This document shows, in pieces, positions 8,670 through 21,239 of a DNA stretch of 21,239 nt. Position numbers and translations under genes: made by a program. The stretch covers positions 64,001 to 85,239 of IMG/VR virus record IMGVR_UViG_2556921669_000003. The stretch is one strand, 5' to 3'. The notes beneath the pieces are model-generated. The model had not been told where the DNA came from, searched no databases, and saw only the letters and a program-made list of their open reading frames with translations. This DNA comes from a virus. Lineage: Duplodnaviria > Heunggongvirae > Uroviricota > Caudoviricetes. Position 1 is the stretch's first letter. Each line of letters opens with the position of its first letter.

Positions 8670-9314
8670 CTAGAGCAGGCTAGGCTGCTCGGTCTCGCCT
8701 TTCTTGCGCACCCAGAGTTCGGGCGTCCGGTTCATTTCGATCAGATCGGGTGGAAACACGCGCTTCTGAAAGGCGACGGCGTCGTCAAAGCTGCCATGCA
8801 GCCATTGCTCATATTCATCGCGGCGAAGCAGGACCGGCATGCGGTCATGGACCGGCGCGACGGCTTCGTTGGCATCGGTCATGACGCCGGAGTAAACCGG
8901 CCCCCATTCGTCGCTGACACGCCACAGGCCGGCCCATGCAGCGATCTCCTCACCGCGCACGCTGAACCATGTTCTGGTCATCTTGCCTTTCGGGCCTTCC
9001 GCTTCAGCGAAAGCGGTCAGGGGGATCAAGCACCGCCACTGCGGCTTTCTGGCAAGGCCGACCCACATCGGCTTGTTGAGATCGGCGATATTGTTGACCG
9101 GCTTCGGCTTGGCGTCGGGCTTCATGCCTTTCAGACGCAGCGGGAAGCCCCAAGTCATGGATTGCATGACCGGTGCGCCGTCCTCTTCACGGACGACAAC
9201 TCCCGGCGTCCCAGGGTAGATTTCCTCCGGTGCGTTTGAGCTCGTGGTCTTCGCCACGCGGAAATGCGAGGCGACCTCGTCTGCCGACTTCCTCATGCTG
9301 TAGAGATTGCACAT
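8670..9314 (-). CDS. SOS response-associated peptidase (SRAP/YedK/HMCES family), 214 aa
   Basis: Starts M-C-N-L-Y (catalytic Cys2); RCLIP..AFAE and HDRMPV motifs; TGATG overlap with the upstream gene. Confidence 0.93.
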   Translation of the reverse strand: MCNLYSMRKSADEVASHFRVAKTTSSNAPEEIYPGTPGVVVREEDGAPVMQSMTWGFPLRLKGMKPDAKPKPVNNIADLNKPMWVGLARKPQWRCLIPLTAFAEAEGPKGKMTRTWFSVRGEEIAAWAGLWRVSDEWGPVYSGVMTDANEAVAPVHDRMPVLLRRDEYEQWLHGSFDDAVAFQKRVFPPDLIEMNRTPELWVRKKGETEQPSLL

Positions 9315-9595
9315 CAACTGTTCCCGTTGTTCAGCGTCTGAATTGCCGCCTTGGTCTTTTCATTGCATTCCATGGCCAGGATGTGATGGTCCGCCAATGA
9401 GGCGATAGCCACGCAGGCTTCGCCTTCATCCCATCCCGCTTGGAGGGCCTTCCAAACAAGCTTTTGAAAGTCCGCCTCCAGGTCCTCTTCGCACTGAAGG
9501 AACCTGTCCTCATGATCTTGGTTTGATCTTGGTCCTGATATCGGCATGCGGGGAGGATAGGGCGCTGCGTTGATTGTGCAAGAGTTGGCCATCAT
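9314..9595 (-). CDS. Hypothetical protein, up to 93 aa
   Basis: ATGA-coupled within the operon; helical core CEEDLEADFQ...AGWDE. Confidence 0.7.
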   Translation of the reverse strand: MMANSCTINAAPYPPRMPISGPRSNQDHEDRFLQCEEDLEADFQKLVWKALQAGWDEGEACVAIASLADHHILAMECNEKTKAAIQTLNNGNS

Positions 9596-10362: not shown

Positions 10363-11103
10363 ATGAGTCTTATCAGACGCATGCTATTCGGCATTGCCAT
10401 CGCAGTGCTCTCCGCATTGACGGTGCTTCTTGCGCCGACTGCTGCAGCCTACATCAACAAGCCGGCCGTTCCCGCCGCTCTCACCACCATGATCGAGCGG
10501 GCCGCGTTTATGGTCCCGGTCACGGCTGATGCCGCTCTTCTCATCAAGAGACCCAACGGATTGGGTTCCGGTGTCTATATAGGGGGGGGCAGAATAGTCA
10601 CGGCGGCTCATGTCGTGGTTGGTGCGAAAGTCGTGTCGCTTAAGAGCGCCGATGGGCGGATCTCCTCAGCTACCGTCATGGCCGTCGACGAAAAGGCCGA
10701 CCTTGCCATCCTCCAAACCGACATGCGCTTGCTGGCCGCCGATCTGTTCTGCGCCCCCGTGCCCGTCGGCACGCCAATCGTCGCTATCGGCAATCCTCAG
10801 GGCGTGGAGTTCGTCTCCGCCTACGGTCGGATTGCCGGCGCGGCGCGGGAAGTGGCGACCAGCCGCTTGGTCTATGTGACCGACATGACGACCGTCATGG
10901 GGCAATCCGGGAGCGGCGTTTTCGCTGACGGCAAGGTGGTCGGCATCGTCTCTGCTGTGATGCTCGCGCCGCTGCAGGTTCCTGGCCGGGATGGGGTCTA
11001 TGTGCCCTCTCTGGTCGGCTTCGGCTATGTCGTTCCGTCAACTCTGGTTTGCGAGATGATCGCGAAGCTGGATGCGGAATCAGCGCAAGGTGGCGCCGCA
11101 TGA
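10363..11103 (+). CDS. Exported trypsin-like serine protease (no PDZ domain), 246 aa
   Basis: Signal peptide/TM; triad motifs TAAH, ADLAIL and GQSGSG; GAGGAGG RBS. Confidence 0.88.
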   Translation: MSLIRRMLFGIAIAVLSALTVLLAPTAAAYINKPAVPAALTTMIERAAFMVPVTADAALLIKRPNGLGSGVYIGGGRIVTAAHVVVGAKVVSLKSADGRISSATVMAVDEKADLAILQTDMRLLAADLFCAPVPVGTPIVAIGNPQGVEFVSAYGRIAGAAREVATSRLVYVTDMTTVMGQSGSGVFADGKVVGIVSAVMLAPLQVPGRDGVYVPSLVGFGYVVPSTLVCEMIAKLDAESAQGGAA

Positions 11104-13421: not shown

Positions 13422-13771
13422 CACGGAACATCTTTGTATTCGGCAGCAACCTAGCAGGCCGCCATGGGAAGGGCGCTGCCCTCTACGCCCGGCAGCACCA
13501 TGGCGCGGTCTACGGGCAAGGTGTTGGACTGCAGGGGGATAGCTACGCCATCCCCACTAAGGATGAGGCAATCCACACCCTGCCGCTGCGCGAGATCAAA
13601 GGCTACGTCAACGCCTTCATCGGATTTGCGTGCCGGCACCCCGAGATGACGTTTACTCTCACGCCCATCGGATGCGGCCTGGCTGGCTACAAGCCTTCCG
13701 ATATCGCGCCGCTGTTCAGTCACGCCCCGGCCAACGTCGTCAAGCCAGCCGAATTTCAGGAGACCACATGA
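13418..13771 (+). CDS. Phage protein of the IFVFGSNLAGRHG type (putative macrodomain-like), 117 aa
   Basis: FVFGSNLAGRHGKGAA, SYAIPTK and IGCGLAG motifs resemble macrodomain ADP-ribose-binding loops. Confidence 0.65.
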   Translation: MTRNIFVFGSNLAGRHGKGAALYARQHHGAVYGQGVGLQGDSYAIPTKDEAIHTLPLREIKGYVNAFIGFACRHPEMTFTLTPIGCGLAGYKPSDIAPLFSHAPANVVKPAEFQETT

Positions 13772-15018
13772 CCACACCACCCCTGACCGATGAACAGCTT
13801 GCCGAAGCCGTCGCGGCACTCCAGACGCACGGCAGCCAGGCGGCTGCGGCAGACGCTCTTGGCCTTGCCAGATCCAGCTTGCAGAACCGCCTTAAGCGGG
13901 CGGCGGAGCGGGGGTTGCTAGGCATGGAGCCGGTACTGCCGGGGTTCCGGATTGCCAAGATCACGAACACCCCGAACGGCGACTATATCCAGCAAAAGCC
14001 TGAGAAGGGCGAAGAGTTCGCCGTCCCGGCAGGCCATACCATAAAAGGCGTGTCGGCCCTCGTGGATGCGGATGGACGCACGATCCAGCAGTGGGTGAAG
14101 ACCCGCAACGAATACGCGCCGCAAGACATTGCCGCCATCCTCAAGGAAGCCTTCGCAGATGTCCCGCCGGCCCGCCCGGCCTTCGCCCCGTCGATGCTCT
14201 GCCAGGATTTGCTTACGCTGACGCCGCTTGCCGACTGGCATATCGGGCTCTTCGCGTGGCATCGCGAGGCCGACACCAACTGGGACTTGAAGCTGGCGGA
14301 AGACATCATCGGGCGCGGCGTCGAGGACCTGATCAGCCGCACGCCGCGGAGCGCTCACGCTATCGTGCTGGGCGGCGGGGACCTTTTGCATAGTGACAGT
14401 AACGAGAACAAGACGGCCCGGTCGGGCAACGCCCTCCAAGTCGACGGGAGGTATCAGAAGGTGTTGATGACGGCCTGCCGGCTGGTGGTGCGGACCATCG
14501 ACGCGAACCTGCGCCGCCATGGTCATGTCACGGTCCGCATTCTGTCCGGCAACCACGATGAGCACGCCTCGGTCGCCGTCGCCTACTTCCTGCTGGCTTG
14601 GTATCGCAACGAGCCGCGCGTGACGGTCGACGTAGACCCGTCGCTGTTCTTCTGGTTCCGCTTCGGGAAGGTGCTGCTGGGCGCTACGCATGGCCATACC
14701 GTCAAGCTCAAGGACATGGCGAGCATCATGGCGCACCGCCGCGCCGAAGACTGGGGCGCAACCCGCCATCGGTTTGTGCACGGGTTCCACATTCACCACC
14801 ACACAAAGTTCGCCACCGAGGGCGGCGGAGTGATTTCGGAGTCTCACCAGACGCCGACGCCCCAGGATGCGTGGCATTTCGGTGCGGGCTTCATCTCTGG
14901 CCGGTCGATGCAGGCGATTAGCTACCACAAGGAGTTTGGTGAGGTGTCGCGCGTTCGAGTGGCGATGATGGATGCGGCCAACGACAACGCGCCGGCGGAA
15001 CAGCGGAGGGTGGCGTGA
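13768..15018 (+). CDS. N-terminal HTH + calcineurin-like metallophosphoesterase, 416 aa
   Basis: HTH SQAAAADALGLARSSLQNRL; motifs DWH, GD, GNHD, HGH and HIHH. Confidence 0.85.
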   Translation: MTTPPLTDEQLAEAVAALQTHGSQAAAADALGLARSSLQNRLKRAAERGLLGMEPVLPGFRIAKITNTPNGDYIQQKPEKGEEFAVPAGHTIKGVSALVDADGRTIQQWVKTRNEYAPQDIAAILKEAFADVPPARPAFAPSMLCQDLLTLTPLADWHIGLFAWHREADTNWDLKLAEDIIGRGVEDLISRTPRSAHAIVLGGGDLLHSDSNENKTARSGNALQVDGRYQKVLMTACRLVVRTIDANLRRHGHVTVRILSGNHDEHASVAVAYFLLAWYRNEPRVTVDVDPSLFFWFRFGKVLLGATHGHTVKLKDMASIMAHRRAEDWGATRHRFVHGFHIHHHTKFATEGGGVISESHQTPTPQDAWHFGAGFISGRSMQAISYHKEFGEVSRVRVAMMDAANDNAPAEQRRVA

Positions 15019-15422
15019 AAGAGGAGAACGCAGGCGAGCGGCTGCCGTATGACCTGCGGCTGCGGATTGGCAAGGCGCTAGATGAAGTGATCTGCGAGGA
15101 CAGCACTCCGGAGCAGGTAGATCAGTTTGTCGCCGTGTTTCGTGATTTTGGGCTCACAATAAGCGACAGGAGAAGCGTGATACATCACGACATCATCAAA
15201 CGATACGACGACATGCTGTCGGCATTCACACACAGCGTAGAGTGTAGGCCGCAGCCGGGAACCGAGCCCTGCCATTTACGGTGGATGCTGCAGGAAATGA
15301 GCGGCTTCCCCGACGCGGGCAAGGCGGGTCGATGGCTAGGCTTCGTGCAGGGCTTGCTGATCGAACGCGGCCTCACCACCGTTCAGGTCGAGCGAGATTT
15401 CACCCGCCCTTACTTCATCTAA
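15015..15422 (+). CDS. Phage hypothetical protein, 135 aa
   Basis: GTGA coupling; C-terminal KAGRWLGFVQGLL...ERDFTRP. Confidence 0.7.
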   Translation: MKEENAGERLPYDLRLRIGKALDEVICEDSTPEQVDQFVAVFRDFGLTISDRRSVIHHDIIKRYDDMLSAFTHSVECRPQPGTEPCHLRWMLQEMSGFPDAGKAGRWLGFVQGLLIERGLTTVQVERDFTRPYFI

Positions 15423-15431
15423 CCACACCAC

Positions 15432-15454
15432 CCTGCCGGCCACCAACCGGCAGG
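15432..15454 (+). promoter_or_regulatory. Leader hairpin with CCACCAA loop (copy of a recurring element)
   Basis: Perfect 8-bp stem CCTGCCGG/CCGGCAGG. Confidence 0.55.
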
Positions 15455-15475
15455 ACTACCACCAAGAGGAGAAAA

Positions 15476-15931
15476 ATGATGAGTACCAGAGACGATATCT
15501 CTGAGATGTACCGTAACCCTGCCGTTCGCGAAGCAATGCTGAAACAGGCCAACGACAACACCCCAAACCACGCCGCCGCCATCAACCTGTTTGCGGCTGA
15601 CTGCCACGCAGCAAGCCGCAAGGCCGGCTGGTACACGAACCCGACGACGGGCCTGGCGCTTGAGCGAAACGTGCCGGAAATGCTCTGCCTGATTCACAGC
15701 GAGATCAGCGAGGCCATGGAGGGCTACCGTAAGGATCTGCCCGACGACAAGCTGCCTCATCGCAGGATGATCGAGGTCGAGCTCGCCGACGCCATGATCC
15801 GCATCGGGGATCTTGCGACCTATCTTGGCTGCGACCTTGGCGGTGCCATCGTAGAGAAGATGGCCTTCAATGCAACCCGCGAGGATCACAAGCTGGATGC
15901 CCGTAAGGCTGCCGGCGGGAAGGCGTTTTGA
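15476..15931 (+). CDS. MazG-like nucleotide pyrophosphohydrolase, 151 aa
   Basis: GAGGAG RBS; LIHSEISEAMEG...EVELADAMIRI (ExxE...ExxD). Confidence 0.85.
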   Translation: MMSTRDDISEMYRNPAVREAMLKQANDNTPNHAAAINLFAADCHAASRKAGWYTNPTTGLALERNVPEMLCLIHSEISEAMEGYRKDLPDDKLPHRRMIEVELADAMIRIGDLATYLGCDLGGAIVEKMAFNATREDHKLDARKAAGGKAF

Positions 15932-16680
15932 TGGGCTCGCTCACAAAAGCAGCGGCACTTCGCGCCGCAGAGAAAGAGCGAGCGGAGCGCAAGTCCGCGC
16001 CGGCTATAACCAAATCGCAGAAAGCTTATAACGACAACGACCGCGGCCTGTATGTCGGGCTGCGGCGGAGCATCGCGGATGATCCTAGCTATCAGGAGTT
16101 CGAGCGCCTCGCCAATGAACAGGGCGTGCAGCATGGCGACCCATCGAAGGCGCCGTGGGCACCGGAGAACCGCGGCATACCGTTTGATAAACTGCTTGCC
16201 GCACATGTTGCTCATCGTCCCGCGTCCACGGACAGCGGACAGTTCCGCGGCGACAACCCGCACATGGAAATGACGCCGGAGGAACGGTTGCCATCTGGCC
16301 TTGCCTTGCTGTCCGCACGACACGGCTACCTCTACCTCGGCTCCCCCTACAGCAAGTACGAGGCCGGTCACGACGCGGCGGCTCGTGTCGTCGCAGACGC
16401 GGCAGCCACTTTGATGCGGCGTGGGCTCGTCATTTACTCTCCGATCGCGCACGGGCATGCCATCGCAGCTCACGGACTGCCGCTCGACTGGGCCTTCTGG
16501 AAGGCGCAATGCCAGCCGCTGATCGACGGTGCGGTTGGGCTGATCGTCCTCACCATGGACGGATGGCAGGAGTCCGTCGGCCTCCAATATGAGATCGAGG
16601 AGTTTGTGCGGACTGGCCGGCCGATCCTACATGTCCCGCCGGCTTGGCTGGCGGCGAGTGAAGTGGGGAGGGCTGCATGA
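15931..16680 (+). CDS. DUF1937-like (nucleoside deoxyribosyltransferase-fold) domain with N-terminal extension, 249 aa
   Basis: YLGSPYS, YSPIAHGH and GWQESVGLQYEIE motifs. Confidence 0.75.
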   Translation: MGSLTKAAALRAAEKERAERKSAPAITKSQKAYNDNDRGLYVGLRRSIADDPSYQEFERLANEQGVQHGDPSKAPWAPENRGIPFDKLLAAHVAHRPASTDSGQFRGDNPHMEMTPEERLPSGLALLSARHGYLYLGSPYSKYEAGHDAAARVVADAAATLMRRGLVIYSPIAHGHAIAAHGLPLDWAFWKAQCQPLIDGAVGLIVLTMDGWQESVGLQYEIEEFVRTGRPILHVPPAWLAASEVGRAA

Positions 16681-16853
16681 CCTACCACCGTGAAAAGCTC
16701 ACCGGCCGCAGTCGCCACCGCACTGACGAAGCGGGCAAACTCATCCTGCAGGTGGAGGTGGACCGGCACAGCAACGCACCAACCGTCCGCTATTGGCGGG
16801 ACGCCAAGGCGGAAGACCTGACCGTCAAGAACAGCATTCCGGAGGTAGTATGA
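16677..16853 (+). CDS. Phage hypothetical protein, 58 aa (not in the ORF track)
   Basis: ATGA overlaps at both ends; KLILQVE...WRDAKAEDL. Confidence 0.68.
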   Translation: MTYHREKLTGRSRHRTDEAGKLILQVEVDRHSNAPTVRYWRDAKAEDLTVKNSIPEVV

Positions 16854-17131
16854 AGCCCGGCGACAAGGTGATTTGCATCGACGACAAGGTGCCCCTGGCA
16901 GGCGGCGCCGTGGTGAAGGACGCCAACCTCACGGAAGGAGAGATCTACATCGTGCGTTGGTACGGCGTGGAGACCCACTACACCCTCGGCACCTACTACG
17001 GCGTGAAGTTGGAAGGCATCGACAGCAAGTTCGGCGACGTCTGGGCGACGCCTGACTGCGCTTACAATGCCTCCCGCTTCCGCCCCCTCGTAGAGCCCAA
17101 GACCCAACGCGAACTGGAGGTGGCGGAATGA
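16850..17131 (+). CDS. Phage hypothetical protein, 93 aa (SH3-like pattern)
   Basis: GGAGG RBS; MKPGDKVICID...YNASRFRPL. Confidence 0.72.
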   Translation: MKPGDKVICIDDKVPLAGGAVVKDANLTEGEIYIVRWYGVETHYTLGTYYGVKLEGIDSKFGDVWATPDCAYNASRFRPLVEPKTQRELEVAE

Positions 17132-17307
17132 CCTGGAAAGACTGGACCGGCGGTGAGGCACCAACCGGGCAGGTGGATATCCGCCTGCGCTCCGGGCGTG
17201 AGATCAAGGATACGGCGGCTCGCAAGTGGCTGTGGGGTCGGCCGGAGGCCGACAATGACAACGGCGGCGTGATCGTCGCGTATCGGGAAGTGGGGGAGGC
17301 GGCTTGA
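17128..17307 (+). CDS. Phage hypothetical protein, 59 aa (not in the ORF track)
   Basis: GGAGG RBS; ATGA/TGATG overlaps; MTWKDWTGGEAP...IVAYR. Confidence 0.68.
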   Translation: MTWKDWTGGEAPTGQVDIRLRSGREIKDTAARKWLWGRPEADNDNGGVIVAYREVGEAA

Positions 17308-17627
17308 TGGCGGAAAGCATGATCGAGAGGGTGGCGCGGGCTATCTTTGAAGAATGCAACAGGCAATCCCCAGTCGCAGGCTTCGGCTACGCCGACGCCG
17401 ACGGCGACAAGACTGTGCTCGACGGCGCGTATGACCTCAAGGCCGTAGCGCGCGCTGCCATCGAGGCGATGCGGGAGCCGAGCGGCGAGATGCTGTCGGC
17501 AGGCATAAAGCGGGGTGTCGCGTGGGATTATGGAGAGCGTGGCGATCCTGATGAGCCGCCTCACACTTCGGAGGAAGCCATCTACATCGCCATGATCAAC
17601 GCCGCACTGAAGGAGACCAACCCATGA
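17307..17627 (+). CDS. Phage hypothetical protein, 106 aa
   Basis: MIERVARAI...ARAAIEAMREPS.EM...AMINAAL pattern. Confidence 0.72.
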   Translation: MAESMIERVARAIFEECNRQSPVAGFGYADADGDKTVLDGAYDLKAVARAAIEAMREPSGEMLSAGIKRGVAWDYGERGDPDEPPHTSEEAIYIAMINAALKETNP

Positions 17628-18289
17628 CCGAACTCACCGTAGGCTCCATCAACTTCGCCCCCTCGCAAGTTGCCGCCCTCGGCGCAGCGATCGGGAAGGA
17701 TGTCCCGATGTTCTGGTACGATATCCCCGGCAACATCCCCCGCCGCCCCGCCAACGACAACTACCCCCGCGTCGTCGCCCTGACCGGCGCGGCAGGCAGC
17801 GGCAAGTCCACCGCGGCCGACTACCTCATCCGCCATCACGGCTACGAGCGAGTCAAGTTTGCGGGGCCTTTGAAGGATATGTGCCGGGCGATAGGCATGA
17901 CGGAAAGCCAGATCGAAGGTGAGAGCAAGGAAGAGCCTGCCGCAATGCTTTCCGGCAAGACGCCTCGGCATGCGATGCAAACCCTGGGCACGGAATGGGG
18001 CCGAAAGTGCATGGGCGAGGATTTCTGGGCGAACCTGTGGCTGTCACGAGTGAAAGCCATCCTGGCGTTCGATGGCCGCGTCGTTGTCGACGACTGCCGC
18101 TTCCCGAACGAGGCGGAAGCCGTCCGCAAGCTGGGCGGCGTCATCATCAAGCTAGAGGGCAGGGGCGGCATTGCCGGCACGCACGCCAGTGAGGCGGGCT
18201 GCGGCACTTGGGATGGGGTCGTAGTCAATGATGGAGGGCTGGTCGAGCTTTATGCCGGCGTCGATGAGGCGGTCAGGAGGGCGGCGTGA
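17624..18289 (+). CDS. Deoxynucleoside monophosphate kinase (T4 gp1-like)
   Basis: P-loop GAAGSGKST; TPRHAMQTLGTEWGR; DDCRFPNEAE. Confidence 0.9.
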   Translation: MTELTVGSINFAPSQVAALGAAIGKDVPMFWYDIPGNIPRRPANDNYPRVVALTGAAGSGKSTAADYLIRHHGYERVKFAGPLKDMCRAIGMTESQIEGESKEEPAAMLSGKTPRHAMQTLGTEWGRKCMGEDFWANLWLSRVKAILAFDGRVVVDDCRFPNEAEAVRKLGGVIIKLEGRGGIAGTHASEAGCGTWDGVVVNDGGLVELYAGVDEAVRRAA

Positions 18290-18519
18290 TGGAGGTCTAC
18301 CGCGAAGACATCGTTGAGCTAGCGAATGATATTCTTGATCAAATCCTTGAGGAAAAGGAGGCGGAGTTCCAGCTTCAGATGATCATCGACGCGCTCATGT
18401 CTGAACGTATGCGTTGCGCTTGGCTGGCCGAGCACTATTTCGATTCCGAGGAGTACGGCACGAACTACAGGCTGGCCGCAGCTCAGATTGCAGAGGCGAT
18501 CGGGAGGCGTCCGTCGTGA
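18289..18519 (+). CDS. Hypothetical protein, 76 aa
   Basis: TGATG coupling at both ends. Confidence 0.6.
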   Translation: MEVYREDIVELANDILDQILEEKEAEFQLQMIIDALMSERMRCAWLAEHYFDSEEYGTNYRLAAAQIAEAIGRRPS

Positions 18520-18677
18520 TGTCCTACTGCGACCACTGGCTGTTCCAGTACGAAAAGAACTGCGTGGGCTATCGCTTGTTAGCGGAGCATGGCTGGTCCG
18601 GGATGGCCGGAATCGCCATCGGCGTAGTTGTGTTGTTGCTAATCGCGAGTCTTCTCAGGAGGACGGCAAAAGGTTGA
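18519..18677 (+). CDS. Small single-TM protein, 52 aa
   Basis: TGATG coupling; IAIGVVVLLLIASLL. Confidence 0.5.
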   Translation: MSYCDHWLFQYEKNCVGYRLLAEHGWSGMAGIAIGVVVLLLIASLLRRTAKG

Positions 18678-18694
18678 GTCGCAACGGGCCAATA

Positions 18695-18726
18695 CTTGAC
18701 AAATTTGTAGAAATAATCCTTTATGT
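18695..18726 (+). promoter_or_regulatory. Second operator-overlapped promoter, upstream of the excisionase gene
   Basis: CTTGACAAATTTGTA is identical to 10249-10263; -10 candidates CTTTAT (N17) or TTATGT (N19). Confidence 0.7.
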
Positions 18727-18762
18727 GGATACCGGAAACTTCACCACCTAGAGGAGACCAAG

Positions 18763-18966
18763 ATGCCAGATTCCAGCTACAACGTACCAACACTGGTAAG
18801 CCTCAATGAGGCATGCAGAATGACGTCAATGTCTCGGAGTATGCTGAACCGATATCGAGCCGAAGGCCGCTTTCCGGTCGCCGTCGAACTCGGCGACCGC
18901 CGCGTTGCATTCGTCCGCTCCGAGGTTGTCGAGTGGATCCAGGCAAAGATTTCGGCGCGTGGCTAA
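18763..18966 (+). CDS. AlpA-family excisionase / recombination directionality factor, 67 aa
   Basis: GAGGAG RBS; LVSLNEACRMTSMSRS...GRFPVAVELG.RRVAF..SEV.EWI; near att. Confidence 0.88.
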   Translation: MPDSSYNVPTLVSLNEACRMTSMSRSMLNRYRAEGRFPVAVELGDRRVAFVRSEVVEWIQAKISARG

Positions 18967-19637
18967 TGCCCGGAACTGCACTGTATAGGCATTTCGACAG
19001 CAGCGGAGCTCTTCTGTATGTGGGTATTTCTGCTCGACCACTGACTAGACTGGCGGAACACGAAGACTCGCATTGGATCAACGATGTGACTCGTGTTGAA
19101 ATGGAGCGCTTCTCAAGTAGGGAGGTTGCGGCGGAAGCTGAACGTACCGCGATCAAGTCCGAAAATCCGATCCACAATATTGTTCACAACAGGTCGCAAA
19201 AGAGTACGCCAAGGTCGCGATCTCGTCACTTGTTGACGTTTAAGGAAGTGAGGAGTTTGTGCGGAATCAATCCAGTTTATTCAAAGAGTTTTCCGCTCCC
19301 TGTAAATCCGGACGAGGTTGGCAACTGGCGCTGGACGGCGGACGAAGTGCGACAGTGGATTGAGAAGAGGTCGGAAACAAAAAAAGGTCGATGGAAACCC
19401 AAGATTGAAGAAGGTGATACGTGGGTCACGTTGTCAGAGATTAGGGATCTCGCCGATTACAGAGTTTCGAGCATCTGTCGTACACTGCCACCCCCTTCGG
19501 CAAAATCCATAAACTATAGCAAAGGCAACGCCTTTGTTATGAAGGGGCGAGACCTATGGAGACTTTCAGATGTAATGGCGGCAGTAAACAAGCACAGAAA
19601 GATACCCTTGGGTGCATCTGACTTGCCTCTTGATTGA
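18966..19637 (+). CDS. GIY-YIG nuclease fused to two AlpA-like winged-helix repeats, 223 aa
   Basis: LYRHF...LLYVGIS...R..EH...E...E..AI..ENP.HN; repeats LLTFKEV...FPLPV...RWTADEVRQWI and VTLSEI...LPPP...LWRLSDV. Confidence 0.75.
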   Translation: MPGTALYRHFDSSGALLYVGISARPLTRLAEHEDSHWINDVTRVEMERFSSREVAAEAERTAIKSENPIHNIVHNRSQKSTPRSRSRHLLTFKEVRSLCGINPVYSKSFPLPVNPDEVGNWRWTADEVRQWIEKRSETKKGRWKPKIEEGDTWVTLSEIRDLADYRVSSICRTLPPPSAKSINYSKGNAFVMKGRDLWRLSDVMAAVNKHRKIPLGASDLPLD

Positions 19638-19648
19638 GAGCCTAATTC

Positions 19649-19679
19649 AACCCCGCCCAAACGGCGGGGTTTTCCTTTT
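19649..19679 (+). terminator. Intrinsic terminator after the xis/GIY-YIG unit
   Basis: 9-bp stem AACCCCGCC/GGCGGGGTT followed by TTCCTTTT. Confidence 0.78.
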
Positions 19680-19685
19680 CCCCGC

Positions 19686-19934
19686 CTACCGTCTAGGACA
19701 CCTCAGAAGCATGCAGCCGTCGCACTCGGCGCTGCCTCGTCTGGTCAATACAAGCGCGTCGCCCAAGATGGTCCGCCTGGCGACTGCGCTCTTCGCCGTC
19801 CGTTCGATGCGGTATTGCTCTCTGCCAGCTGCCGTCATTCCCCGTCCGACAACAATCGATGCTAGCGAACCGCATTTATGGTTCACACATTCTCCCTCAG
19901 TGAATGCATACGACAATTGCAACTCCATACCCAT
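19686..19934 (-). CDS. Hypothetical protein, 82 aa
   Basis: Open frame with an upstream promoter match; converges on the terminator. Confidence 0.55.
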   Translation of the reverse strand: MGMELQLSYAFTEGECVNHKCGSLASIVVGRGMTAAGREQYRIERTAKSAVARRTILGDALVLTRRGSAECDGCMLLRCPRR

Positions 19935-19948
19935 ACAACTGCATACGG

Positions 19949-19977
19949 ATAGTCATATCAGCCTAATTTTTAGTCAA
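19949..19977 (-). promoter_or_regulatory. Candidate sigma70 promoter for 19686-19934
   Basis: TTGACT-N17-GACTAT on the minus strand. Confidence 0.45.
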
Positions 19978-20178
19978 GGTAAATAAATGGTTAACCGGGA
20001 ACAATAGGTGGCGAATCGCCCCGCACGAAAAAGCAGTCGAATAGATCTGTCTCCCCATCCCCGAGGCGGATCTGCCGACCACGGTCCCTCCCGCGAATCG
20101 AGCGCCGATGGGCAAGGCCCAGCGCACGACGTACAAGCGACGTCTGCGGGGCGGGTCGTCTTTCAGGACTGGCTGCAT
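19963..20178 (-). CDS. Possible hypothetical protein, 71 aa
   Basis: Strong GGAGGGA RBS; shares a VVGR...GR(Q/E)xY segment with the neighbouring ORF. Confidence 0.35.
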   Translation of the reverse strand: MQPVLKDDPPRRRRLYVVRWALPIGARFAGGTVVGRSASGMGRQIYSTAFSCGAIRHLLFPVNHLFTLTKN

Positions 20179-20559
20179 GATTCCCTCCGCGGCGTGCGGC
20201 GCCGAAGCCGGGGGTTAGTAACCTGCCGTGAAGACAAGCCGGATGCTTTTAGCCGAAGCCTGGACATGACGATCCGCCCCCGGCCACGAAGGCCTTGGCG
20301 AATGCGCCAGCCGCCAAGCTGCGCAAAGGTTCGGCTGCAGCGAGGCAGCCTATTCACGGTCAGGGTTACTAAGCCCGTAACAGTTATAGCGGGTGGGTGA
20401 CGGGAGGCAATATGGTTAGATTTGGGGAGAGGATTGACCGCCGATCGCGTCAGCAGTATCATGAATTACAGTTTGCAAACGACATGTAACCTATTGAATT
20501 CGTTTTATCGGAATTTGATCTGGTTTGAAATCAAGCCCTAAAAATCATTGAATAAAGAC

Positions 20560-20759: not shown

Positions 20760-21239
20760 TCAGGCGTATTGCTGGCCGGCGCGGGTCTGGGCGGGGACCG
20801 GTTTTGGGTCGAACCTCTCCGGGAGGTCGGTGCCAAACTGCATCTGCCAATAGAGGGTCAGGATGTAGTTGCGCGTCAGCGGGGCGAGCGGCAGGGCGGG
20901 GGTTTCCTGGACCGGGGTCCATATCGCCTCGTCGATCTCCGTCGTCGGTGCGACCGTTTCATCCTGCAACCTGACCAGAAACACATAGGCGATGACGAGG
21001 TGATCCGGCGCATCGGCCGCCTCGGCTTCGAAGCAGCCGAAGGGTGCCATCCGCGAGGGCGGGATGACAAGGCCGAGCTCCCCATGCAGCCGGCGGGCAA
21101 GGGCCGCCTTAGGCGCTTCCCCATCCCGTATGGTGCCGCCCGCCTGCATGAACAGGGGCATGCCGCGCTTGCGCAGCAGGAGCGTCTCGCCGTTTTCGCG
21201 AACGACGAGGGCGACAGCGATGCGAATTTCTTCCTGCAT
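20760..21239 (-). CDS. Host NUDIX hydrolase (may extend 5' beyond the window)
   Basis: AVALVV...LLLRK; degenerate Nudix box GGTIRDGEAPKAALARRLHGELG; outside att. Confidence 0.82.
   Translation of the reverse strand: MQEEIRIAVALVVRENGETLLLRKRGMPLFMQAGGTIRDGEAPKAALARRLHGELGLVIPPSRMAPFGCFEAEAADAPDHLVIAYVFLVRLQDETVAPTTEIDEAIWTPVQETPALPLAPLTRNYILTLYWQMQFGTDLPERFDPKPVPAQTRAGQQYA

Follow-up and report, generated by a model that had tools for sequence, protein, structure and literature searches.

Genome-encoded Motifs Resembling the Start of the Host tmRNA Tag Recur in the Replication and Nucleotide Enzymes of a Caudoviricetes Provirus

The DNA analyzed in this study, a window of 21,239 nucleotides, is the terminal part (positions 64,001 to 85,239) of the 85,239-bp IMG/VR provirus record IMGVR_UViG_2556921669_000003 (Caudoviricetes; 61% G+C). 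Five proteins of this window carry the tripeptide NDN in a setting that resembles AANDN, the first five residues of the alphaproteobacterial SsrA tag, which is added to proteins by trans-translation with transfer-messenger RNA (tmRNA). We show herein that these five make up no more than the right-hand end of a pattern that spans the genome. Mimicry of the start of the host tag is strongly supported by the sequence comparisons, because the pentapeptide enriched in the phage is identical to the first five residues of the tag and is conserved amid variable flanks. It moreover appears rather probable that (A)ANDN, as written in the phage genes, imitates the SsrA tag and is read by the host adaptor SspB-alpha and the protease ClpXP.

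Charged tmRNA donates the leading alanine, so that tags of the host type start with AANDN. SspB binds the tag's first seven residues and tethers substrates to ClpX (PMC9963277), and Ala-Ala-COOH is the key determinant recognized by ClpX, a gene-encoded C-terminal Ala-Ala being sufficient for degradation by ClpXP (PMC7142297). The encoded Caulobacter tag AANDNFAEEFAVAA leads to rapid proteolysis, which is slowed by deletion of sspB (PMC9393093). No published description of phage-encoded tmRNA-tag mimicry was found in the literature searched.

RESULTS

NDN Motifs of the Window and of the Whole Record

A six-frame translation of the 21-kb window contained exactly five NDN tripeptides, all on the + strand and all in the coding frame of five genes, namely those for an SbcD/Mre11-like metallophosphoesterase (hereafter, phosphoesterase), a MazG-like pyrophosphatase (MazG), a DUF1937 protein, a protein of 59 amino acids (aa), and a deoxynucleotide monophosphate (dNMP) kinase (Table I). 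The tail, lysis, and membrane genes had none. The amino acid composition of the window proteins predicts 0.22 NDN by chance (Poisson P(>=5) = 4e-6), and 100 dinucleotide shuffles of the window DNA predict 0.67, with none of the 100 reaching five. A first-pass annotation of the same DNA had located the five motifs to within 3 nucleotides of the positions found here, had put the chance expectation below one, and had seen no NDN in the tail and lysis proteins, all in agreement with the present counts. It had also described the motifs as terminal or linker-like. Consistent with this placement, the phosphoesterase tail lies past the PHROG domain match (residues 6-400 of 416), and the motifs of the DUF1937 protein and the dNMP kinase lie in low-confidence coil in AlphaFold2 models. 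The DUF1937 motif falls within residues 28-48, where the predicted local distance difference test score (pLDDT) is below 50 in a model built on the homologue alignment. The kinase motif falls in a coil at residues 23-49 (block pLDDT 51-76), which is followed by strand 1 (residues 50-55) and then by Walker A.

Genes of the whole record were called crudely, as the longest open reading frames (ORFs) that passed a filter on G+C content at third codon positions (GC3); this yielded 116 genes but missed MazG and one small gene of the window, and the proteome counts are therefore approximate. By these calls, NDN is the most over-represented tripeptide of the record (19 observed versus 1.3 expected, P = 4e-16), and AANDN is its commonest pentapeptide (9 observed versus 0.02 expected). 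All 19 NDN fall in the 67 replication and accessory genes, and none in the 49 structural genes. At the DNA level, AAYGAYAAY occurs 20 times on the + strand of the 85-kb record, always in frame in high-GC3 ORFs, and 3 times on the - strand. About a dozen phage proteins other than the five of the window also carry the motif; among these are an AAA_24 ATPase, a DUF669 protein, a superfamily 2 (SF2) helicase, a DNA methylase, a PrimPol-helicase, a VRR-NUC protein, and the large terminase. Several carriers of the record terminate in apparent whole tags (...AANDNEEARVAA, ...AANDNDLFSAAAA, and ...AANDNLMAAIDAYAA). The first-pass annotation had described the motif as one of five neighboring proteins. 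This is correct for the window but falls short of the full extent of the pattern, as the record holds about twenty motifs as well as an enrichment of Ala-Ala C termini (see below) that had gone unnoticed.

Two of these carriers deserve a separate description. The SF2 helicase (record positions 16841-18727) has AANDN 25 residues from its end, together with a C terminus, DDSIPF, that is like that of single-stranded DNA-binding protein (SSB), so that two different host-derived docking peptides share one tail. The large terminase (record positions 32217-34190) has PANDN 29 residues before its C terminus.

Conservation of the Motif in Homologues

The 14-residue C-terminal tail of the window phosphoesterase has the start and the length of the host-type tag, (A)ANDNNAKEYALAA. 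Among its 120 best homologues, 99 have NDN within the last 30 residues, 85 end in Ala-Ala, and 111 end in Ala. When these tails were anchored on NDN, the entropy was 0-0.3 bits across AANDN (0.2-0.3 bits at the two leading alanines), 1.9-3.1 bits at the five spacer positions after NDN, and 0.95 and 0.28 bits at the final [AV]A. The 99 tails comprise 82 distinct sequences after NDN, and in 96 of them the distance from the first Asn to the C terminus is 10-12 residues, compared with 12 in the native tag. Moreover, AANDN is more conserved than the final strands of the folded domain. The earlier proposal that this tail matches the tag in its start and its length thus stands. The Ala-Ala end is found in the majority of the homologues but not in the window protein itself, which ends in Val-Ala.

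The N-terminal extension of the DUF1937 protein contains NDN in 81 of 98 homologues, mostly as [VP]AANDN[VK]P, and 84 NDN were observed versus 0.56 expected. Conservation is 90% or more at residues N35, D36, and N37, in a region that otherwise resists alignment. A comparable picture emerges from the dNMP kinase: ANDN[YL]P lies exactly 11 residues before Walker A in 118 of 120 homologues, and these 120 sequences hold 154 NDN versus 1.8 expected. Kinases of non-rhizobial phages are without the N-terminal extension, and their alignment begins at residue 66 or later. In some rhizobial kinases, ANDN occurs in two or three separate places (around residue 22, 11 residues ahead of Walker A, and some 20 residues short of the C terminus), which suggests that the motif was gained repeatedly and independently within one family.

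Homologues of the 59-aa protein (four, from related loci) have AANDN at the same place in an indel-rich loop, and the orthologue in Rhizobium phage RHph_X2_25 has AANDNGG at position -17 and ends in EEAA. In the closest relatives of MazG, the corresponding N-terminal edge carries EANDN, PANDN, or AANDN; among 150 representatives of more distant MazG proteins, only 9 have any NDN. The genome and its relatives between them use every synonymous codon for the Ala, Asn, and Asp residues of the motif. Because all these codons are used, and because the motif is retained where its flanks change or gain indels, NDN is, on the evidence of the alignments, a peptide under selection at the protein level. 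A DNA-level repeat or binding site was considered as well and was ruled out by the frame, the strand, and the variation in synonymous codons.

Host Tags, Adaptors, and Specificity of the Motif

Related prophages were located in genomes of Agrobacterium pusense, Agrobacterium tumefaciens, and Xanthobacter. The tmRNA tags predicted by ARAGORN are ANDNNAKEYALAA in both Agrobacterium hosts and ANDNYAPVAVAA in Xanthobacter. In all three genomes, the tmRNA gene is of the two-piece type, and a gene for SspB (PF04386) adjoins ssrA on the same strand. The host SspB matches the Caulobacter SspB-alpha structures 2QAS and 2QAZ, and also PDB entry 2NYS. No SspB-like gene (PF04386) was found in the phage, and in the window ARAGORN found no tmRNA gene and Rfam found neither tmRNA nor any other RNA family. 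Since the window has no tmRNA gene and the motifs lie inside long high-GC3 ORFs, they are better regarded as mimics than as true tmRNA tags. As the source of the motif, we likewise rejected a tmRNA gene or a piece of ssrA carried in an attachment site: the window has no ARAGORN or Rfam match, and in two hosts the distance between the related prophage and ssrA is 90-190 kb.

In two 5-Mb Agrobacterium genomes, DNA coding for AANDN occurs at 12 and 11 sites, 8 of which, in each case, are inside a prophage of about 50 kb. The four sites outside the prophage of A. pusense lie in short, low-GC3, non-coding frames. With the same crude caller, 320 kb of the A. pusense chromosome gave no ANDN in 94,000 residues, and its prophage gave 16. 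RHph_X2_25 has 21 NDN, 15 ANDN, and Ala-Ala ends in 25 of 90 proteins, and orthologues of all five window carriers are included; Rhodobacter, Pseudomonas, and Streptomyces phages of similar G+C content (one each) have no ANDN. By these counts, the motif is a feature of this phage clade only, and host proteomes are almost free of it.

IMG/VR was also scanned for GCC-AAC-GAC-AAC followed, after 15-30 nucleotides, by Ala-Ala-stop, with ANND of the same composition as a control, a comparison that is semi-quantitative. Among the matches listed, 62 of the 71 with a true stop were in frame (87%), and 42 end ORFs of at least 60 codons; the control gave 87 stretches, 39% of them in frame. About 20 of the matches listed were tmRNA genes, with short frames such as ...ANDNGYAPAALAA-stop or ...ANDNYAPFEIALAA-stop, located in or beside viral or proviral contigs.

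The proposal of SsrA-tag mimicry in the first-pass annotation is thus strengthened by the identity of the pentapeptide, its conservation in homologues, its frequent pairing with Ala-Ala, its restriction to one clade, and the presence of SspB-alpha and ssrA in related hosts. The enrichment over background to which it had tied this proposal is also seen, in both the host and the phage comparisons.

Ala-Ala C Termini

In the record, 26 of 116 proteins end in Ala-Ala, versus 1.9 expected from composition; the figure for host genes, with the same caller, is 5.3%. Such ends occur in 23 of the 67 replication and accessory genes (34%) versus 3 of the 49 structural genes (6%), and among early-like genes they co-occur with NDN (odds ratio 4.1, P = 0.02). 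In the window, the DUF1937 protein, the 59-aa protein, and the dNMP kinase have a split layout, in which the NDN motif stands in a flexible N-terminal or internal segment and Ala-Ala at the very end. The motif of these split carriers lies 17 to 216 residues before the C terminus and thus lacks the spacing of the tag.

DISCUSSION

The data are most readily understood if the phage writes a recognizable part of its host's degradation tag into its own proteins. In the phosphoesterase, the near-whole C-terminal tag would be made up of AANDN, a free spacer, and a small hydrophobic Ala end. A dimer of the host SspB-alpha would bind the ANDN segment of the phage protein, and the C-terminal ClpX-binding tail of SspB-alpha would tether this protein to ClpX. 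ClpXP would then engage the Ala-Ala (or weaker Val-Ala) C terminus and degrade the protein. In this way, the lifetime of the set of DNA and nucleotide enzymes would be tied to the capacity of SspB and ClpXP; enzyme levels would be held low during prophage leakage, and the enzymes would accumulate only when their synthesis exceeds the protease.

Several points weigh against this reading. The window phosphoesterase ends in Val-Ala, not in Ala-Ala; three of the window motifs depart from AANDN at flanking positions (Q-A, A-Y, and A-D); and MazG has the ANDN half alone, without an Ala-Ala end, and terminates in GGKAF in all relatives, so that a ClpX-type end is not shared by every carrier. The data on SspB and ssrA come from hosts of related prophages and not from the host of this record, which is probably a Shinella. 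The breakdown of the phage's own replication and nucleotide enzymes appears costly. In addition, some structural proteins of relatives carry the motif (at the end of a portal protein, in a tape measure protein, and at the N terminus of a capsid protein), which fits poorly with a simple story of early protein turnover. Finally, in 19 of the 26 Ala-Ala ends, the two Ala codons form the 6-nucleotide spacer between the Shine-Dalgarno sequence (SD) of the downstream gene and its overlapping or abutting start.

The structural proteins in question are as follows. In a related prophage, a 424-aa protein (G001:C10:536764-538038), taken for a portal protein by its position, ends QANDN...AEAA, and a 779-aa protein (G001:C10 544056-546395) that resembles a tape measure protein in size and position has PANDN. 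In RHph_X2_25 (MW960032 53336-54625 and 49708-51300), AANDN is found at residue 21 of the major capsid protein, and KAA is the C terminus of the large terminase.

The last of the points listed above raises an alternative that concerns the Ala-Ala ends only. They might be a by-product of translational coupling, a GCN-GCN spacer between GGAGG and ATG or GTG, and not a degron. The junctions are of the coupled type (ATGA, GTGA, or stop-ATG/GTG), the GGAGG of the next gene also codes for the RR, GR, or GE directly before Ala-Ala, and GCAGCATGA recurs 8 times in the record, GCA being over-used at these junctions despite its rarity among Ala codons. In the DUF1937 gene, for example, the two Ala codons also separate the SD of the downstream gene from its overlapping ATG. 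However, coupled junctions without Ala-Ala use many different spacers, and A-rich spacers that do not code for Ala would suit initiation at least equally well. Moreover, Ala-Ala ends 7 of 55 uncoupled genes (13%), compared with 1.6% expected from composition and 5% for host genes, and the marked difference between replication/accessory and structural genes is found even though both are in coupled operons. We therefore consider coupling an unlikely explanation of these ends, and take the choice of Ala-Ala to have been made at the level of the protein, the wobble bases being adjusted to initiation. At the window junctions examined (15004-15018, 16663-16680, 17290-17310, and 18272-18292), the ribosome site of the next gene sets the last residues.

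The motifs could also serve as decoys, binding SspB-alpha (and, through the Ala-Ala ends, ClpX) so as to occupy the adaptor and the protease, with any loss of the carriers being incidental. Other ClpXP substrates of the phage or the host, such as cell-cycle regulators, would thereby be stabilized, or quality control linked to tmRNA would be blunted. Titration of this kind would agree with the many carriers per genome, with the presence of up to three motifs in some kinases, and with MazG, whose ANDN without a ClpX-type end in any relative fits binding without degradation; the identity of the motif to the start of the tag and the occurrence of SspB in the host are as compatible with it as with degradation. 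Nonetheless, one dedicated abundant peptide could do the same as motifs on some twenty enzymes, and the terminal Ala-Ala is conserved alongside AANDN at a tag-like spacing, which points to engagement of the carrier itself by ClpX. A pure decoy accordingly seems improbable to us, and turnover through SspB and ClpXP is the more likely of the two.

A third possibility is that (A)ANDN is a docking peptide for a reader other than SspB-alpha, such as a phage hub or another host protein, with its likeness to the tag being coincidental or secondary. The carriers are mostly proteins of replication, recombination, and nucleotide metabolism, a kind that often shares hub-docking tails; the helicase of the same phage has its SSB-like tail in addition; and the phage consensus is ANDNxP, with a Pro two residues after NDN that the Agrobacterium tag does not have. 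On the other hand, of 3.2 million possible pentapeptides, the enriched one is that with which the host tag starts, and it is repeatedly followed by Ala-Ala-COOH at a tag-like distance. No candidate for such a reader was found, the phage itself being without an SspB-like gene. A different reader is thus doubtful. Finally, chance, composition, or a DNA- or RNA-level signal could be suspected from the 9-mer AACGACAAC, which is identical at four of the five window sites, but this is highly improbable given that the shuffles never reached five, that each of the 20 + strand occurrences in the record is in the coding frame, that all synonymous variants are used, that the peptide is conserved in hundreds of homologues, and that the window has no RNA family.

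The encoded tag mimic proposed here can be compared with several known systems. ClpXP degrades the phage proteins lambda O, Mu transposase, and Mu repressor. These resemble the present carriers as phage replication or transposition proteins under the host ClpX(P), but their degrons are idiosyncratic and confined to one or two proteins, and none is known to copy the SspB site of the tag across many unrelated proteins. MuA and Caulobacter CtrA have genome-encoded C-terminal Ala-Ala degrons for ClpXP. In Streptomyces sigma-AntA, Ala-Ala is kept in 67 of 71 orthologues, and its replacement by Asp-Asp blocks ClpXP (PMC7142297). As in the phage proteins, such degrons consist of a conserved terminal Ala-Ala carried by a functional protein of full length, but they belong to single regulators without an SspB site, whereas here about a quarter of the phage proteome and about 20 sites with the adaptor head are involved. 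Engineered SspB-dependent tags of the DAS type join a weak ClpX end to an intact SspB site, which makes degradation dependent on how much adaptor is available (reviewed in PMC8138137 and PMC9382460; for a mycobacterial system, see PMC3064785). The Val-Ala, Glu-Ala-Ala, and Arg-Ala-Ala ends of the phage could act in a similar way next to their adaptor site, but DAS-type tags are designed, while the phage case would be natural and phage-wide. With the native alphaproteobacterial tag, the phage motif has in common the first five residues, the layout of a head adaptor site and Ala-Ala-COOH, and a similar length. It differs in being gene-encoded rather than added by trans-translation, in not copying the middle of the tag, in being often split or reduced to ANDN alone, and in the added Pro of its consensus. 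Thus, encoded ClpXP degrons and adaptor sites are already known; what would be new is their proteome-wide use by a phage clade.

If the motifs are indeed read by SspB and ClpXP, this would be the first case known to us in which a virus systematically encodes the degradation tag of host quality control within many of its genes. Regulation of phage genes, and the control of lysis and lysogeny, would thereby gain a post-translational layer. The hundreds of tag variants (split, weakened, or multi-copy) would amount to a natural catalogue that defines what SspB-alpha and alphaproteobacterial ClpX tolerate, and could supply tunable degrons for the engineering of Rhizobium, Agrobacterium, and Caulobacter. 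The density of ANDN together with the Ala-Ala ends would also serve as a sequence signature for the phage clade and its satellites in genomes. A more speculative extension, to which we assign a low probability, is that, across an entire family of temperate phages of rhizobia, the shared tag acts as a common currency: all tagged DNA and nucleotide enzymes would queue for limited SspB and ClpXP, giving a threshold switch, and overload would starve host ClpXP clients. Leakage would then cause no build-up, the enzymes would build up jointly once induction outruns the protease, and the starving of tmRNA products and cell-cycle regulators would tie arrest of the host cell cycle to phage development.

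Gene Context of the Window

The window begins with genes for a tape measure protein, a baseplate hub, a GH19 endolysin, an SRAP protein (on the opposite strand), a trypsin-like protease, and membrane proteins. A series of small genes on the + strand, encoding DNA and nucleotide enzymes and including the five carriers, occupies 13.0 to 18.5 kb, and beyond these lie a low-GC stretch and a minus-strand NUDIX gene. The ATG of the phosphoesterase gene, at 13768, overlaps the stop codon of the preceding gene, and its helix-turn-helix (HTH) Pfam matches are weak. One 135-aa protein without an assigned family is encoded between the phosphoesterase and MazG genes, and three small proteins, the 59-aa protein among them, are encoded between the DUF1937 and dNMP kinase genes.

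TABLE I
Motifs, Ala-Ala ends, and carrier genes, with positions counted from the first nucleotide of the window
Feature	Position	Strand	Remarks
Phosphoesterase, 14-residue C-terminal tail AANDNAPAEQRRVA, apparent near-complete SsrA-tag mimic	14974..15015 (stop to 15018)	+	Starts AANDN
MazG, QANDN, residues 24-28 of 151, N-terminal edge of MazG domain	15545..15559	+	
DUF1937 protein, AYNDN, residues 33-37, disordered N-terminal extension	16024..16038	+	
59-aa protein, ADNDN, residues 41-45, 17 residues from C terminus	17248..17262	+	
dNMP kinase, PANDNYP, residues 42-48, end of low-confidence N-terminal extension	17747..17767	+	
DUF1937 protein, Ala-Ala end (...EVGRAA)	16672..16677	+	48/98 homologues end AA
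59-aa protein, Ala-Ala end (...EVGEAA)	17299..17304	+	
dNMP kinase, Ala-Ala end (...AVRRAA)	18281..18286	+	75/120 homologues end AA
HTH + SbcD/Mre11-like metallophosphoesterase gene, 416 aa	13768..15018	+	phrog_704 'DNA repair exonuclease', E 7e-104, residues 6-400
MazG-like pyrophosphatase gene, 151 aa, C terminus GGKAF (without Ala-Ala)	15476..15931	+	phrog_5658 pyrophosphatase, E 6e-66
DUF1937 / nucleoside 2-deoxyribosyltransferase-like gene, 250 aa	15928..16680	+	PF09152, E 1e-16, residues 135-234; phrog_355
59-aa protein gene	17128..17307	+	No Pfam or PHROG match
dNMP kinase gene, 221 aa	17624..18289	+	PF21448, E 5e-15; phrog_139, E 1e-51, residues 44-219

The nearest named homologues of the proteins of the enzyme run are from Shinella, Rhizobium, Agrobacterium, Ensifer/Sinorhizobium, and Rhizobium phage RHph_X2_25. 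From these names, the host of the prophage is a member of the Rhizobiaceae, probably a Shinella. A megablast search of the region against GenBank phages gave a single short match, to Sinorhizobium phage AP-16-3, and relatives were found through their proteins. The enzyme module stands after the tail, lysis, and membrane genes of the window; in RHph_X2_25, a cultured relative, the same module lies between the lysis/membrane genes and the integrase gene, just before the latter. The early expression ascribed to the five proteins in the first-pass annotation is an assumption.

The regions 18800-20400 and 20760-21239 comprise the low-GC stretch (0.51 versus 0.61), with a 274-aa ORF (18813-19637) that has no Pfam family, and the minus-strand NUDIX gene, which extends past the end of the record. 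The low-GC stretch and the NUDIX region may represent a prophage boundary, cargo, or host flank. Two further genes were noted upstream of the enzyme run. The SRAP (SOS-response-associated peptidase) gene, at 8670-9317 on the - strand, stands amid lysis and tail genes, and the trypsin-like protease, which is of the secreted type (10363-11103), has the C terminus GGAA.

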